Source: Hydrolagus colliei (Eukaryota). Taken from it: DNA of 64,000 nt. Shown in pieces: positions 3,641-63,100 of this stretch (positions are counted from its first letter, which is position 1; each line of letters starts with the position of its first letter). The translations under genes and the position numbers were made by a program. Under the pieces are notes generated by a model. That model saw nothing but the letters and a program-made list of their open reading frames with translations, made no database searches and was not told the origin of the DNA. Where the stretch lies: NCBI GenBank assembly GCA_035084275.1, contig CM068767.1:8742001-8806000 (forward strand), in the 5' to 3' direction.

Positions 3641-3911
3641 ATGTGTGTGTGTATGTGAGGATGTGTGTGCGTGTGTGTGTGAGGGATGGTGGGGTTGGGG
3701 CTGAACGTAATGTGGGGTTTGCATCCCAAAGGTTAGAGAACACCAAGAGTGTTAGTTTAGTGACTCTCTCTGAGTGTGGCAGCGAGTGAGAGGCAATTGT
3801 TTTCTGATGCTCTCATTCTCTCTCCTCTCATTGCTCAGTGAGCTGAGAGGTGTGTTTAGGCTGATTCACTGCAGTCACAAGATGCATTGTGTCCTATTTT
3901 TAACTAATTCT

Positions 3912-7849: not shown

Positions 7850-8199
7850 TCACTGGGTGCAGCTGGTGTCTGTGCAGCGCCACCCGGTGGCCATGGGTGG
7901 GTAACACGGCAGCGGTGTGAGCGCTGGACAGGTGTCGGCGGGACTGCGCATGCTCAAGAGCAGCTCAAGTCAGTGGGGGGGGGGGGCGGTCACTGCCTTT
8001 GGCTTCCGGGTCAGAGTGCGAGCAATGGCGGCGCCCACGCTCGGTTACGGACGTGCTCAGGTAACGGGCAGCGTTCGCTCCGGGACCGCGCTCGGTGTGG
8101 CCCCGGTTTCCGGTGGTCCCTGTAGCTCAGCGCTCGCCTCACACACAGCGAGAGAGGCCTGGGTGTCCATTCCCCGCAGGTCAGGGCCAAACCTCGGGC
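7850..8199 (+). promoter_or_regulatory. CpG-rich housekeeping promoter and probable first exon of mrps16
   Basis: Local GC/CpG enrichment; NRF1-like TGCGCATGCTCA (7945-7956, one mismatch to TGCGCATGCGCA); GC box GGGGCGG (~7983-7989); ETS/GABP CTTCCGG (8003-8009); YY1-like ATGGCGGC (8025-8032); donor CAG|gtaacg at 8060/8061. NRF1, GABP and YY1 sites are typical of nuclear-encoded mitochondrial genes. Confidence 0.7.
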
Positions 8200-12690: not shown

Positions 12691-13719
12691 TCGATATTCC
12701 GATTTTGTGTTGTGACTTAGTGTACAGCTGCTCCCAGGGTGAACGCTGAGAGATTCTCTCACCATAGGTTGCTAATGTGTGTTGGCACTCTGACCTCAGA
12801 GAGGGTGTTGACCTGGGTGAAGAGAGAATGTCAGTGCAGGCGTACGCTTGCTGCCAAGTGTTTCGCGAGGCGGGTATTACTGCATCACCAAAGCAACCGC
12901 ATTGCCAATAACTCGGGAGACCAGGGAAGGGTTCATTAATTTAACGTTACAACCAATTATGTTACAAAAGCCAATGTCAAGCTTATAGAGCCTCTCCTCC
13001 CAAATGTTGTTCCCCTGGGAGATGCTGTTCTCTTCCCCCAGCGAAGGTGAGGATGGATCCCGGCTGCCCGGTCTACAGTGTAGTGTGTGTGCGCGTGTCA
13101 GAGGTTGGCTGCAAGATGGGAGTAAATGGGGGAAGGTGATACTGTCGATCAGGTTTGTTGGATTCCGTACGGTATTGTGTTACTTCTCCAGCGACTGGTG
13201 GGGAATTCTGACGGGGAACTGATGTTGAGGAATGTTGTGCGTGCTGTACGGTGAGTTATGGGCCCATTGTGCTGGGGAAGAATGATGGCTAGAGTGCTTA
13301 GGTCGCTGCCAGTGTGCAGTTCGCAGACCTCATCAATGACCCTTTGAAGGTGCTGCATGAATCACCCGCTTTGTGACAAGAAAATCCGAATTACAATCTG
13401 CGGGTCAGGTGCCGACCACATAAACCCGGCCAGGCTGGGCTAGGACCTGCTGTACACGGCTGTGGCTGCAGTCGGGGGTTTGGGTGAGGTTGTGGAAGCA
13501 TTGAGGCTGAAACTTGTCCTCGTGCAGCTGCGGGCGGAGTCACAGGCCTGGTTCCTGTCAGACCTGGGATCAGATAAAACACCTGGCAGTGGCTTGAGTC
13601 CAACCTTGCTCCATTAGTGCCAATGTTACCAAGTCAACATCTTATCAGCTATTGCGTTTGTCCCCTACCAACTTGTCCACAGCCTCCACTTAATGGGTTC
13701 TGGCCAGCTTCACATCCCC

Positions 13720-13880: not shown

Positions 13881-14309
13881 CATGGAGAGTGAATGACCAC
13901 GGGAGGAAAGTTCAGAGGACCACTGACCCATGGTTGTATTAATAAATGTGATGGGTTATTAGAGACAAAAAGGAGATTCGCTCTCTTCAGGAGAGTGGAA
14001 TGTTAAATCTATATGGAAGGATGTGTTGCAGAGAATTGTAAATAAAGAATAATTCTGATTTAAGAAAAGTAACCGACTGAGAGCTTTCCAAATACACTTC
14101 AGTGTAAAGAGCCTCTGTTACTTTAGCTGTTAGCCTGACTCAATCTGTGGTGCTCAGTTGATCAGTTGGGATCTCTAGCCAATAACCAGCTCAAGTTCTT
14201 ACCACCAGGTGAGACAATAACTACAGCTTTTAAATGCATAAAATTTGGATTGGTTTTATATTTAGACAAATAAATTCCCAAAATTACATTTAAATGCGAT
14301 TTTCATGTT

Positions 14310-18832: not shown

Positions 18833-18944
18833 ATGCGGCAGTCTACCGCACAGAAGATCTTCAGAAGGACTACTCTGAGAGAGCCAAAGGATAACACATG
18901 GTTTGTTCTCCTGACTTTAGTGCTTGTGCAGCTTCATTCACAGG
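18833..18944 (+). CDS. Probable first coding exon (signal-peptide-like) of the giant mucin-like gene
   Basis: In-frame TGA 15 nt upstream; encodes MRQSTAQKIFRRTTLREPKDNTWFVLLTLVLVQLHSQ (basic n-region, hydrophobic h-region); strong donor CAGG|gtaagg in phase 1, compatible with the phase-1 acceptor at 24160. Confidence 0.65.
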
Positions 18945-24159: not shown

Positions 24160-27100
24160 GAGACAGTACAACAATTTTCTATCCACAAACCTCTCAAAAG
24201 GAAAGTGCTACTCAGAAAGCAACATCAAATGCAATTCAACGCAGAAATCAATCATCTAATATTCCTGCATCATTCTTTCCCATTTCTACTCCTACGACTC
24301 CATCCGAGGTAAGCAGCTCATCTGAGTCACCCGTAACCTCTCCTGCTGAAGAACCATCATCTTCTACTGAACCAACATCGCAAGTGACAACTATGATTAC
24401 AGATAGTGCTCCTGTCTCTCAGGAAAGCAGTAGCTTTGCTTCCTCCTCAAGATCTCAAACAACTCAGTCATCGACTCCCTCTGACACTTCCTCACAGTTG
24501 CTTCCAATTTCTGAAATTGCATCTACACATCTCTCAACTGGTGGCACATCATTTAGCCCTGCAAAATCCTCATCTGATGCTTCTACAGACACAGGTGAAC
24601 CACAAACCCTCTCCACATGGTCAACTGCAGTTGATAATGAACCTTCCACAAGCTCAATACCACTTTCCACATCACAAGAATCATACCTCACAACAGAATC
24701 AACATTCTCCCCGGAAGAGCCAACCACAGCAATCACTCCAACTGTACCTATTTCAAAAACACAAACATCCCCCTTCACAAGTTCTGTGTCATACCCATCA
24801 CAGTCACATGCCACCCCTTTGTCAATGGAAACTTCTGCTTCATCAAAAATAACGTCGGATGAAACCGCTCAAACTGCTCACCGTGTTCCCTCATCTCCAG
24901 AGACCTCAACTTCTTTACCTCCCTCTACACTGGAGTTATCAACGCTGGTAGAAACTTCATTCCAAAGTCTCAATACTATGTCAGACATCACTTCCACACA
25001 AGAATCCAGTCATTCATCATATTTGACATCAGGATCCTCATTGCCCCCGAAAACTGAGGCAACACCAGAAGCTGTCTCGACAACTCTTTCATCCATTGCC
25101 ACGAAAGAGGCTGCCACTGAGCAGGTTTCACAATCTGCCTTCGACGTGTCCAGTGACACACTGAAAACATCAGTTGGATCAGATACAACAACAATAACAC
25201 CAATCACTTCTTTCTCTATGCACACAGAAACAAGCTCTTCCAATCTTCCAGGGCTATCAGAGCAGACCATCACTCCATCTGAGTCACACATATCTAGCTC
25301 TGAAATGGAAACCTCTTCAATGCTGCAATCAACAGCATCTGTAGCAATTGCAGATGATCTGACACGCGTGGTTTCTGAGCGGATAGCAAGCTCTGATTCT
25401 ACAATTTACTCCACAGTTGAGCCAACATCCGTTTCTGAGTTTTCATCTACAGAAGATTCTACTTCCACAGTACCATCCAACAGTCAAGAACCTCGCTCCT
25501 TATCCCACGTTGCAACAATCTCAACAACATTTGTCACTCCTGAAGTAACATCACGTTCAATGTTGATGTCAACAAAATCAAGCATCACTGAAGACAATCT
25601 ATCAACCTCTTCTTCTCATTCCACCGTTGAAATATCCAGTATCATTCCAAAGTCAACCATGCTACCTGAAAAATCGCCAACTAGCACAGTTACTCAGTCC
25701 ACTCAAAGCATTGAAATCAGTTCTCGTGCAGCTTCTTCAATTAAGGAAAGCAGCTCATCTGAGTCACACGTAACCTCTCCTGCTGAAGAACCATCATCTT
25801 CCACTGAACCAACATCGCAAGTGACAACTATGATTACTGATAGTGCTCCTGTCTCTCAGGAAAGCAGTAGCTTTGCTTCCTCTTCAAGATCTCAAACAAC
25901 TCAGTCATCGACTCCCTCTGACACTTCCTCACAGTTGCTTCCAATTTCTGAAATTGCGTCCACATATCTCTCAATTGGTGGCACATCATTTAGCCCTGCA
26001 AAATCCTCATCTGATGCTTCTACAGACACAGGTGAACCACAAACTCTCTCCACATGGTCAACTGCAGTTGATCATGAACCTTCCACAAGCTCAATACCAC
26101 TTTCCACATCACAAGCATCATACCTCACAACAGAATCAACATTCTCCCCGGAAGAGCCAACCACAGCAATCACTCCAACTGTACCTGTTTCAAAAACACA
26201 AACATCCCCCTTCACAAGTTCTCTGTCATACCCATCACAGTCACATGCCACCCCTTTGTCAATGGAAACTTCTGCTTCATCAAAAGTAAGTTCGGTTGAA
26301 ACCGCTCAATCTGCTCACAGTGTTCCCTCATCTCCAGAGACCTCAACTTCTTTACCTCCCTCCACAATGGAGTTATCAACGCTGGTAGAAACTTCATTCC
26401 AAAGTCTCAATACTATGTCAGACATCACTTCCACGCAAGAATCCAGTCATTCATTATATTTGACATCAGGATCCTCATTGCCCCCGAAAACTGAGGCAAC
26501 ACCAGAAGCTGTCTCAACAACTCTTTCATCCATTGCCACGAAAGAGTCTGCCACTGAGCAGGTTTCACAATCTACCTTCGACGTGTCCAGTGACACACTG
26601 AAAACATCAGTTGGATCAGATACAATAACACCAATCACTTCTTTCTCTATGCACACAGAAACAAGCTCTACCAATCTTCCAGGGCTATCAGAGCAGACCA
26701 TCACTCCATCTGAGTCACACATATCTAGCTCTGAAATGGAAACCTCTTCAATGCTGCAATCAACAGCATCTGTAGCAATTGCAGATGATCTGACACGCGT
26801 GGTTTCTGAACAGATAGCAAGCTCTGATTCTACAATTTACTCCACAGTTGAGCCAACATCCGTTTCTGAGTTTTCATCTACAGAAGATTCTACTTCCACA
26901 GTACCATCCAACAGTCAAGAACCTCGCTCCTTATCCCACGTTGCAACAATCTCAACAACATTTGTCACTCCTGAAGTGACATCACGTTCAATGTTGATGT
27001 CAACAAAATCAAGCATCACTGAAGACAATCTATCAACGTCTTCTTCTCATTCCACTGTTGAAATATCCAGTATCATTCCAAAGTCAACCATGCTACCTGA

Positions 27101-60100: not shown

Positions 60101-63100
60101 CATGCTACCTGAAGAATCGCCGACTAGCACAGTTACTCAGTCCACTCAAAGCATTGAAATCAGTTCTCGTGTAGCTCCTTCAACTGAGGAAAGCAGCTCA
60201 TCTGAGTCACACGTAACCTCTCCTGCTGAAGAACCATCATCTTCCACTGAACCAACATCGCAAGTGACAACTATGATTACTGATGGTGCTCCTGTCTCTC
60301 AGGAAAGCAGCAGCTTTGCTTCCTCCTCAAGATCTCAAACAACTCAGTCATCGACTCCCTCTGACACTTCCTCACAGTTGCTTCCAATTTCTGAAATTGC
60401 GTCCACACATCTCTCAACTGGTGGCACATCATTTAGCCCTACAAAATCCTCATCTGATGCTTCTACAGACACAGGTGAACTACAAACCCTCTCCACATGG
60501 TCAACTGCAGTTGATAATGAACCTTCCACAAGCTCAATACCTCTTTCCACATCACAAGCATCATACCTCACAACAGAATCAACATTCTCCCCGGAAGAGC
60601 CAACCACAGCAATCACTCCAACTGTACCTATTTCAAAAACACAAACATCCCCCTTCACAAGTTCTGTGTCATACCCATCACAGTCACATGCCACCCCTTT
60701 GTCAATGGAAACTTCTGCTTCATCAAAAGTAACGTCGGATGAAACCGCTCAAACTGCTCACAGTGTTCCCTCATCTCCAGAGACCTCAACTTCTTTACCT
60801 CCCTCTACAATGGATTTATCAACGCTGGTAGAAACTTCATTCGAAAGTCTCAATACTATGTCAGACATCACTTCCACACAAGAATCCAGTCATTCATCAT
60901 ATTTGACATCAGGATCCTCATTGCCCCCGAAAACTGAGGCAACACCAGAAGCTGTCTCAACAACTCTTTCATCCATTTCCACGAAAGAGTCTGCCACTGA
61001 GCAGGTTTCACAATCTACCTTCGACGTGTCCAGTGACACACTGAAAACATCAGTTGGATCAGATACAACAACAATAACAACAATCACTTCTTTCTCTATG
61101 CACACAGAAACAAGCTCTACCAATCTTCCAGGGCTATCAGAGCAGACCATCACTCCATCTGAGTCACACCTATCCAGCTCCGAAATGGAAACCTCTTCCA
61201 TGCTGCAATCAACAGCATCTGTAGCAAGTACAGATGATCTGACACCCGTGGTTTCTGAGCGGATAGCAAGCTCTGATTCTACAATTTACTCCACAGTTGA
61301 GCCAACATCCGTTTCTGAGTTTTCATCAACAGAAGATTCTACTTCCACACTACCATCCAACAGTCAAGAACCTCGCTCCTCATCCCATGTTGCAACAATC
61401 TCACCAACATATGTCACTCCTGAAGTAACATCACATTCAATGTTGATGTCAACAAAATCAAGTATCACTGAAGACAATCTATCAACGTCTTATTCTCATT
61501 CCACCGTTGAAATATCCAGTATCATTCCAAAGTCAACAATGCCACCTGAAGAATCGCCAACTAGCACAGTTACTCAGTCCACTCAAAGCATTGAAATCAG
61601 TTCTCGTGTAGCTCCTTCAACTGAGGAAAGCAGCTCATCTGAGTCACACGTAACCTCTCCTGCTGAAGAACCATCATCTTCCACTGAACCAACATCGCAA
61701 GTGACAACTATGATTACTGATGGTGCTCCTGTCTCTCAGGAAAGCAGCAGCTTTGCTTCCTCCTCAAGATCTCAAACAACTCAGTCATCGACTCCCTCTG
61801 ACACTTCCTCACAGTTGCTTCCAATTTCTGAAATTGCGTCCACACATCTCTCAACTGGTGACACATCATTTAGCCCTACAAAATCCTCATCTGATGCTTC
61901 TACAGACACAGGTGAACCACAAACGCTCTCCACATGGTCAACTGCAGTTGATAATGAACCTTCCACAAGCTCAATACCTCTTTCCACATCACAAGCATCA
62001 TACGTCACAACAGAATCAACATTCTCTCCGGAAGAGCCAACCACAGCAATCACTCCAACTGTATCTGTTTCAAAAACACAAACATCCCCCTTCACAAGTT
62101 CTGTGTCATACCCATCACAGTCACATGCCACCCCTTTGTCAATGGAAACTTCTGCTTCATCAAACGTAACGTCGGATGAAACCGCTCAAACTGCTCACAG
62201 TGTTCCCTCATCTCCAGAGACCTCAACTTCTTTACCTCCCTCTACAATGGAGTTATCATCGCTGGTAGAAACTTCATTCCAAAGTCTCAATACGATGTCA
62301 GACATCACTTCCATACAAGAATCCAGTCATTCATTATATTTGACATCAGGATCCTCATTGCCACCGAAAACAGAGACAACACCAGAAGCTGTCTCCACAA
62401 CTCTTTCATCCATTGCCACGAAAGAGTCTGTCACTGAGCAGGTTTCACAATCTGCCTTCGACGTGTCCAGTGACACACTGAAAACATCAGTTGGATCAGA
62501 TACAACAACAATAACAACAATCACTTCTTTCTCTATGCACACAGAAACAAGCTCTACCAATCTTCCAGGGCTATCAGAGCAGACCATCACTCCATCTGAG
62601 TCACACCTATCCAGCTCCGAAATGGAAACCTCTTCCATGCTGCAATCAACAGCATCTGTAGCAAGTACAGATGATCTGACACCCGTGGTTTCTGAGCGGA
62701 TAGCAAGCTCTGATTCTACAATTTACTCCACAGTTGAGCCAACATCCGTTTCTGAGTTTTCATCAACAGAAGATTCTACTTCCACACTACCATCCAACAG
62801 TCAAGAACCTCGCTCCTCATCCCATGTTGCAACAATCTCACCAACATATGTCACTCCTGAAGTAACATCACATTCAATGTTGATGTCAACAAAATCAAGT
62901 ATCACTGAAGACAATCTATCAACGTCTTATTCTCATTCCACCGTTGAAATATCCAGTATCATTCCAAAGTCAACAATGCCACCTGAAGAATCGCCAACTA
63001 GCACAGTTACTCAGTCCACTCAAAGCATTGAAATCAGTTCTCGTGTAGCTCCTTCAACTGAGGAAAGCAGCTCATCTGAGTCACACGTAACCTCTCCTGC

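Follow-up and report, generated by a model that had tools for sequence, protein, structure and literature searches.

We examined a repeat of 479 amino acids (aa), with abundant Pro, Thr and Ser (PTS), in the genome of the chimaera Hydrolagus colliei (assembly GCA_035084275.1). An initial annotation had singled out this unit at 24312–25748 of a 64,000-nucleotide (nt) stretch of contig CM068767.1 (positions 8,742,001–8,806,000, forward strand), hereafter the window. We found that the unit is the first of 28 tandem copies, and that the copies fill the ectodomain of a predicted SEA-type membrane mucin, likely a sugar-coated spacer on the epithelial surface. We assign this reading a probability of roughly 85%. 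Among the corrections to the initial annotation, the PTS unit is not free-standing, but would be part of the stalk of a membrane mucin. Numbers above 64000 extend the window numbering into the contig, here called C34 (genome position minus 8,742,000).

A coding array of 28 copies

Unit 1 (24312–25748, + strand, frame 1) translated without a stop into 479 aa that contained no Cys and one Trp, the latter in the context quoted by the initial annotation. The other two frames held 13 and 32 stops. The array consisted of 27 copies of 477–479 aa and a last copy of 454 aa. Pairwise DNA identity among copies averaged 97.8% (range 96.1–99.9%), and the periodicity was far beyond chance. Copies differed in length by whole codons only, and all indels were in frame. 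From 23997 onwards the frame stayed open for 13,796 codons through the window and the adjoining genome. A genome search with the first 489 nt of the unit gave 28 matches, all within the array, and no match elsewhere in the genome at E ≤ 0.001 (the search yields lower bounds only). Tandem Repeats Finder (TRF) detects periods of at most 500 nt and so did not report the array; it showed no sub-repeat of period ≤500 nt inside the array.

Six of the 19 listed read runs were compared with the array. Run X5 came from organism A, with a sample and study different from those of X1–X4. One of its contigs, of depth 57, ran from the intron through the start of the exon into unit 1; another, of depth 50.5, crossed the 3′ junction. 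In the same run, contigs of the unit had depths of 961–1,483, roughly 17–28 times the flank, and such depths are not equal to copy numbers. Runs X9 (organism C) and X6 (organism B) gave unit-length contigs of 1,467 and 1,412 nt, ~3.5–3.7% different from unit 1. Each had a joint leading back by 1,437 nt, and their depths were 50.4 and 21.1 versus 2–4 in the flanks. In X13 (organism D), unit contigs reached depths of 702–1,065 versus 56–92 in the flank, and the flanks differed by ~2–6%. The initial annotation had asked whether relatives carry the unit once or amplified. Close relatives have it amplified, and the period is the same in organisms B and C.

Differences among the copies were scored against the majority codon, excluding five codons around an indel. 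There were 162 distinct single-base variants, 52 synonymous and 110 nonsynonymous. None created a stop, versus 7.6–7.8 stops expected under the observed mutation spectrum (P ~0.0005), and the ratio among copies analogous to dN/dS was ~0.84. These values indicated that the frame is under selection and that the residues are nearly free to change.

Could the array have arisen in assembly, or be a satellite, non-coding or pseudogenic, whose frame is open by accident? Two single-cell RNA runs of organism D (see below) had no reads on the exons, as this would predict, and the RefSeq model of the likely orthologue in Callorhinchus milii starts at the EGF domain, without a PTS region. Against it stand the missing stop variants, the in-frame indels, the stops in the other frames of unit 1 and the structured differences among copies. 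In addition, an independent sample contained both junctions, with unit depth raised ~17–28-fold, relatives contained the tandem joint, and the exons downstream were intact. We consider an artefact or satellite very improbable, and concluded that the array is a real, well-supported coding variable number tandem repeat (VNTR).

A predicted SEA-type membrane mucin

Our 10-exon model of the gene encodes 14,065 aa (1.47 MDa), and all nine of its introns are GT–AG. The domain order is signal peptide, PTS, EGF, SEA, EGF, transmembrane segment (TM) and tail. The PTS region has 13,656 aa, including 6,267 Ser and Thr and no Cys, with exon borders predicted from the DNA. The features are as follows.

18833–18944, + strand: predicted exon 1 with putative signal peptide (ATG, long basic n-region, hydrophobic core, phase-1 donor of score 5.0; in-frame splice to 24160)
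24160–64000, continuing to C34:8807256 (donor 65256), + strand: predicted giant exon 2, 41,097 nt, phase 1-1 (acceptor at 24160, AG/GT borders, C. milii protein match)
24160–24311, + strand: unique N-terminal PTS, 50 aa, with no significant likeness to the unit
24312–64000, continuing 427 nt beyond the window to C34:8806427 (64427), + strand: tandem array, unit 1,431–1,437 nt; last copy starts at 63066
24312–25748, + strand: repeat unit 1, array-edge copy, 479 aa, holding more private variants than any other copy (15 of the 66 singletons)
C34:8806428–8807117, + strand: 3′ unique PTS, ~230 aa, including a partial, diverged unit copy; no Pfam families
C34:8807118–8807256, + strand: predicted EGF1 (Pfam E = 0.0043, below the cut-off), in the same exon as the PTS
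C34:8808275–8808396, 8808527–8808591 and 8811320–8811519, + strand: predicted SEA, three exons (C. milii protein match)
C34:8812062–8812224, + strand: predicted Cys-rich/EGF2 exon (C. milii protein match)
C34:8813280–8813444, + strand: predicted exon with EGF2 end and TM (C. milii protein match)
C34:8813823–8813893, 8814142–8814287 and 8814751–8814807 (stop, 72807), + strand: predicted tail, three exons (C. milii protein match)

The C-terminal 375 aa were 74% identical to C. milii ‘mucin-3A’ (XP_007896060.2; an earlier version was named ‘mucin-4-like’), a likely orthologue with the same EGF-SEA-EGF-TM-tail layout. All nine exon pieces compared with this protein showed 50–79% identity. For the third SEA exon (66 aa), one relative was found among 22 candidates, again C. 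milii ‘mucin-3A’ (78% identical). AlphaFold, given an alignment of 69 rows for the C. milii protein, returned a model with a confidence (pLDDT) of 85.3, versus only 42 for a single-sequence model. With the alignment-based model, the top five VIA-align matches were all SEA-bearing (Z 9.4–11.7, root mean square deviation 2.7–4.8, 98–120 residues; next Z 7.8). Foldseek gave four matches at E < 0.001, all of them SEA-bearing (E 1.8e-4 to 9.3e-4). Pfam SEA was matched by 38 of the 69 aligned homologues, and weakly by the C. milii protein itself (E = 0.0013). The predicted SEA domain contains the G-S autoproteolysis motif, which is ≥90% conserved in the homologue alignment. It is followed by a hydrophobic stretch (helix 254–286 in the orthologue model), a basic stop-transfer motif and a tail of ~95 aa. 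At the N-terminus, the candidate exon at 18833–18944 was compatible with a signal peptide in phase and hydrophobicity; weaker candidates for the first exon, at 3807, 9431 and 22013, were discarded. As predicted from sequence and model, the protein has the large tandem-repeat PTS exon, the EGF-flanked SEA with its G-S motif, and the single TM and tail that define the MUC3/12/13/17 type.

Several observations weigh against this identification. Exon 1 was chosen by eye. Pfam placed EGF below the cut-off on the gene’s own exons and gave no match for the two SEA exons tested, and the SEA fold was seen on the C. milii orthologue rather than on this protein. In the single-cell RNA runs X15 and X16 (related organism D, 27–30% of each run read), depth was 0–0.2 over the array end and the EGF exon, and the joints listed included no splice joint. 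The predicted tail ends in charged residues without a class I PDZ motif, as in the C. milii protein and unlike the MUC3 cluster.

By analogy with MUC3/12/17, the protein would be secreted to the cell surface and densely O-glycosylated, and would serve in a barrier. O-glycosylation of its ~6,270 Ser and Thr could stiffen the chain into a stalk. A glycosylated stalk measures 0.25 nm per residue; at this value one unit would span ~120 nm and the whole stalk up to ~3 micrometres. A self-cleaving SEA domain and the membrane anchor would hold and tether it, as inferred from the same family. The make-up, gene size and likely barrier job are ordinary for mucins, and no new mechanism is indicated.

Make-up, drift and length of the unit

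Unit 1 contained 45.3% Ser and Thr, with 35 Pro, 38 Glu, 15 Asp, 10 Lys and 7 Arg. In every 40-aa stretch tested, Ser and Thr made up 40–52%, and the longest run free of both was ≤6 residues. Pfam at E ≤ 1 gave no families for unit 1 or unit 9, in agreement with the absence of a folded domain that the initial annotation had reported, and FoldIndex was borderline (~0.02). A repeat of a folded domain, of the MUC16 SEA-repeat or CysD-cassette type, was ruled out on these grounds: no Pfam families, no Cys, and dense Ser and Thr throughout. All 28 copies had no Cys and one Trp. This had been presented as notable, and did not hold up as a special feature in a composition control of 37 PTS segments (14,869 aa) from homologous mucins. 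Control segments contained 0.2% Cys and 0.2% Trp, giving 0.93 of each expected per 479 aa and a probability of 0.39 for no Cys; 23 of 37 had no Cys, and 30 of 37 had at most one Trp. The proposed acidic scaffold likewise came down to moderate acidity: Glu and Asp made up 11.3% of unit 9 versus 7.7% of the pooled controls, inside their range of 3.7–19.2%. We concluded that the distinctive feature of the unit is its length alone.

Each copy carried at least one N-glycosylation sequon. One variant family (copies 9, 10, 11, 17, 20, 27 and 28; seven of 28) has gained a second.

The unit had been called a complex, unique PTS segment, and we found no significant sub-repeats within it. Its best ungapped internal self-match scored 22.8, versus maxima of 20.2 ± 3.0 (95th percentile 25.6) in codon shuffles. 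The unit might instead be a higher-order repeat built from older, decayed short repeats, for example sub-units of ~159 or ~110 aa. Weak gapped self-matches occurred at offsets of ~159 and 105–112 aa (z 3.6–3.9), and 159 × 3 = 477; these similarities could be relics of older sub-repeats, and to that extent they tell against a non-repetitive unit. The z values, however, came from 18 windows with 30 shuffles each and were uncorrected, the ungapped score lay within the shuffle distribution, and TRF gave no sub-repeat. Several orthologue PTS stretches of 326–437 aa were likewise non-periodic, and are the kind of raw material from which such a unit could derive. We regard decayed sub-repeats as unlikely, and as compatible with a 28-copy mucin stalk in any case.

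The copies recorded their own recombination. Copies 11–14 reappeared as copies 20–23 with 1–4 differences each, and several copies were front/back mosaics. Four-gamete failures rose from 13% at <200 nt to 35–48% at 400–1,200 nt, with 33% in the last, smallest bin. Singletons were concentrated at one end (51 of 66 in copies 1–7). In about half of human mucins, too, the edges of the arrays have degenerated (PMC13345508). The 3′ unique PTS held a diverged partial copy of 156 nt, 81% identical to the middle of the unit (score 207 versus a shuffle maximum of 70). The mosaics, duplicated blocks and diverged partial copy suggest that the array is old and still subject to unequal crossover, rather than the product of one recent block amplification. 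Thus, the en-bloc amplification proposed earlier stands in that the unit was amplified as a whole, and fails in that this was not one event. Its 162 variant alleles per unit make the array a good natural archive of how unequal crossover proceeds within a coding exon.

No variant gained a Cys, versus 3.1–4.8 gains expected (P 0.04–0.009), and selection probably excludes this residue. Retention of Ser and Thr under otherwise neutral drift has been described for other mucin repeats (PMC9417175). In the origin that we envisage, a long non-repetitive PTS stretch would have been duplicated once, setting the period of 1,437 nt. Unequal crossover and conversion would later have expanded and homogenized the array, leaving mosaic copies and ragged ends. 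Selection would hold the frame open and probably exclude Cys, and most amino acids would drift. Near-neutral drift of the residues suggests that the first duplication’s breakpoint set the unit length, likely as a frozen accident and not as a functional ruler. On this account, a mucin VNTR could begin from any long non-repetitive PTS stretch, and selection would later act chiefly on the frame and possibly on Cys, rather than on a motif.

Alternatively, the 478-aa period may itself be functional: each unit would repeat a fixed pattern (one N-glycan sequon, acidic patches, protease sites and the single Trp) every ~120 nm, and the array would act as a ruler or multivalent ligand. The sequon present in every copy would fit, as would the Trp codon invariant in 28 of 28 copies, the 1,437-nt period shared by organisms B and C, and a slight excess of synonymous variants (52 versus 41.3 expected, P = 0.058). 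The Trp, however, is uninformative and was rejected as a sign of function, because 162 variants over ~474 codons leave any single codon invariant ~70% of the time. The ratio of ~0.84 shows little constraint on residues, and the relatives are close, as the flanks in X13 show. Nor did the unit resemble the PTS of shark, ray, frog and fish orthologues beyond composition (z ≤ 2.8, 9 tests). We searched a set of 5.8 billion proteins with unit 1 (proteins of 840–2,395 aa) and unit 9 (263–839 aa), and found no match among the top ~8,000 candidates scored; because only these were scored, the negative is weak and says nothing on presence in C. milii. Overall, a functional period appears improbable, and a freely drifting spacer of accidental unit length is preferred.

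How unusual is the length? Bovine submaxillary mucin BSM1 (Muc19) is a secreted gel-forming VWD mucin with a single ~58-kb exon. Gum et al. in 1997 reportedly gave a period of ~375 aa for imperfect repeats of MUC3, a value that could not be confirmed. BSM1 contains >50 tandem repeats of 329 aa (cited in PMC3056801), which makes it the nearest precedent for so long a mucin unit; its unit is ~150 aa shorter than that of the chimaera. MUC3 does have imperfect repeats beside its canonical ones (PMC9578598); in the literature searched, where most subscription papers were out of reach, no text stated the 375-aa period. Canonical human units span 8–169 aa (PMC6163557 Table 1; PMC9712336), including 17, 28 and 59 aa among MUC3A, MUC3B, MUC12 and MUC17, and the lengths quoted by the initial annotation agree with PMC6163557 Table 1. 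In human MUC6, a single exon holds 27 copies of a 169-aa PTS unit and includes partial copies and small in-frame indels (PMC9712336); MUC6 differs from the chimaera gene in being gel-forming and in having a unit 2.8 times shorter. The same searched literature, with its incomplete coverage, held no description of this gene, of a third paralogue or of a mucin with ~480-aa periodicity, the last of which the initial annotation had named as a check. The chimaera unit is therefore the longest mucin repeat found in that literature, by a modest margin. With the 329 aa of BSM1 and the ~375 aa reported for MUC3 but unconfirmed, it extends the known range of mucin unit length ~1.3–1.45 times; ‘exceptionally long’ holds only against the human list quoted earlier. 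Full MUC3B and MUC12 sequences might contain higher-order periods near or above 478 aa.

Total gene size is not unusual among mucins. The PTS exon measures 39,267 bp in MUC3B and 32,428 bp in MUC12 (PMC9578598), and MUC12 alleles reach 23,080 aa (PMC13345508). Human MUC3A, MUC3B, MUC12 and MUC17 (7q22) share with the chimaera gene the layout of a single giant PTS exon ahead of SEA, TM and tail.

Position among the SEA mucins and neighbouring genes

A homologue search of 1.84 billion representatives gave 162 matches at E ≤ 0.001. Among the best 150 of these, the best named matches came from shark, ray, frog, paddlefish, goldfish and salmon, and were called mucin-3A/3B/17-like or hypothetical. 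The shark and ray proteins (Pristis pectinata ‘mucin-17’, XP_051895312.1) are likely orthologues with the same EGF-SEA-EGF-TM-tail (42–45% identity). The Polyodon, Carassius and Oncorhynchus ‘mucin-3A/3B-like’ and frog ‘mucin-17-like’ proteins, with the same C-terminal layout and 30–38% identity, are also likely orthologues. The names of several of these entries are plainly automatic. The orthologue database models examined contained at most a few hundred PTS residues, and none had the ~478-aa array.

A quick tree of 59 hand-picked rows resolved three groups. The chimaera gene grouped with fish and frog proteins (19 rows, 12 named by source, no named amniote; support by the approximate likelihood ratio test SH-aLRT, 99). 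The second group comprised MUC4-type proteins (98), and the third MUC3A/12/17 of mammals together with members from gecko and frog (100). Each group contained a protein of Xenopus laevis. A careful tree of 20 rows gave the same grouping, with 80/98 for the gene’s clade and the gene outside the MUC3A/12/17 clade. Three named mammalian MUC3A/12/17 members tested were 20–24% identical over the C-terminal region and formed a separate clade. The chimaera gene also differs from MUC3A/12/17 in its neighbours and in lacking the C-terminal class I PDZ-binding motif, a feature of the mammalian proteins (PMC9578598). Lang et al. 2006 report no MUC3/12/17 in fish or chicken (PMC1552070). A single query, Xenopus mucin-17-like, found no MUC3/17-clade gene in this genome; a SEA family search gave 23 matches elsewhere in it.

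MUC4 identity was rejected. Non-mammalian MUC4-type proteins have a related EGF-(SEA-like)-EGF-TM-tail end, but the chimaera gene lacks the NIDO, AMOP and VWD region: its PTS joins EGF1 directly in one frame, and the 230 aa that precede EGF1 match no Pfam families. The human MUC4 unit is 16 aa.

Within ±100 kb on C34 we observed a PAX3/7 gene, which we take to be PAX7, a presumably SGPP-like gene, an ODAD1/CCDC63-like gene, a Mig-6-region gene and family-C G-protein-coupled receptors (GPCRs). A 7q22-type neighbourhood was not found at this locus. In human, PAX7, ERRFI1 and TAS1R lie on 1p36, and the genes flanking MUC3 on 7q22. Contig C18 carried the other PAX3/7 gene, an SGPP paralogue and FARSB and, 13 Mb on, two MUC4-type genes, one of which has a Mig-6-region gene less than 11 kb away. 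An earlier guess that the C34 neighbours were PAX3-SGPP2-FARSB was dropped, because FARSB and another PAX3/7 and SGPP sit on C18. The MUC4-type genes thus have paralogous neighbours in common with the array locus. Together with the tree, this would make the chimaera gene and MUC4 sisters by duplication, the chimaera gene having a MUC3-like layout. Judged from sequence, it likely belongs to a third paralogue lineage (cartilaginous fishes, ray-finned fishes, frogs) rather than being a MUC3A/12/17 orthologue. One result tells against this: an approximately unbiased (AU) test did not reject a grouping of the cartilaginous-fish genes with MUC3A/12/17 (p = 0.077), and the paralogue claim is not decisive.

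We hold the full claim tentatively, at a little under even odds. It states that this is the longest internally non-repetitive PTS unit in a vertebrate mucin (478 aa × 28, several chimaera species), in a third SEA-mucin lineage. That lineage would be a genome-duplication sister of MUC4 without NIDO-AMOP-VWD, kept in cartilaginous and ray-finned fishes and frogs, unseen among named amniote matches and mislabelled ‘mucin-3A/17’. If the paralogue reading is true, fish and frog ‘muc3/muc17’ genes are misnamed, and membrane-mucin history gains a third branch.

Other features were seen around these loci. Two near-identical MUC4-type C-terminal regions lie 139 kb apart on C18 (20711464–20712105 and 20850924–20851565), beside the Mig-6-region (TNK2-like) gene. 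Xenopus was the deepest-branching animal with a Muc4-like protein, as cited by Lang et al. 2016 (PMC4948705), so a chimaera MUC4 would extend the range.

The SGPP-like gene (C34:8730393–8734216) stands head-to-head with the PAX7-like gene and is one of three genome paralogues (C34, C18, C17); mammals have two SGPP paralogues. On C18 the copy is flanked by the other PAX3/7 gene and FARSB, so the one on C34 may be an ohnologue linked to PAX7. A Mig-6 homology region (Pfam E = 1.5e-7) in an ERRFI1/TNK2-like gene at C34:8873649–8874521 was absent from the genome-wide family search list. The interval C34:8877654–8894540 holds two or more GPCR genes of family C (TAS1R-like), which lie on opposite strands. 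The first exon seen of the ODAD1/CCDC63-like coiled-coil gene (Pfam ODAD1_CC E = 9.6e-10) lies ~3.4 kb past the mucin stop codon.

In the window itself, 8009–8068 (+ strand) resembles a housekeeping-type first exon of a small gene, GC-rich, with a good Kozak ATG at 8025 and a strong donor after 8060; possible further exons are at 13192–13250 and 14158–14208. Elsewhere, C33:2925956–2952943 contains tandem SEA-encoding exons at ~1,117-nt spacing in a MUC16-like layout, with 13 matches in 2925956–2939516 and more beyond.

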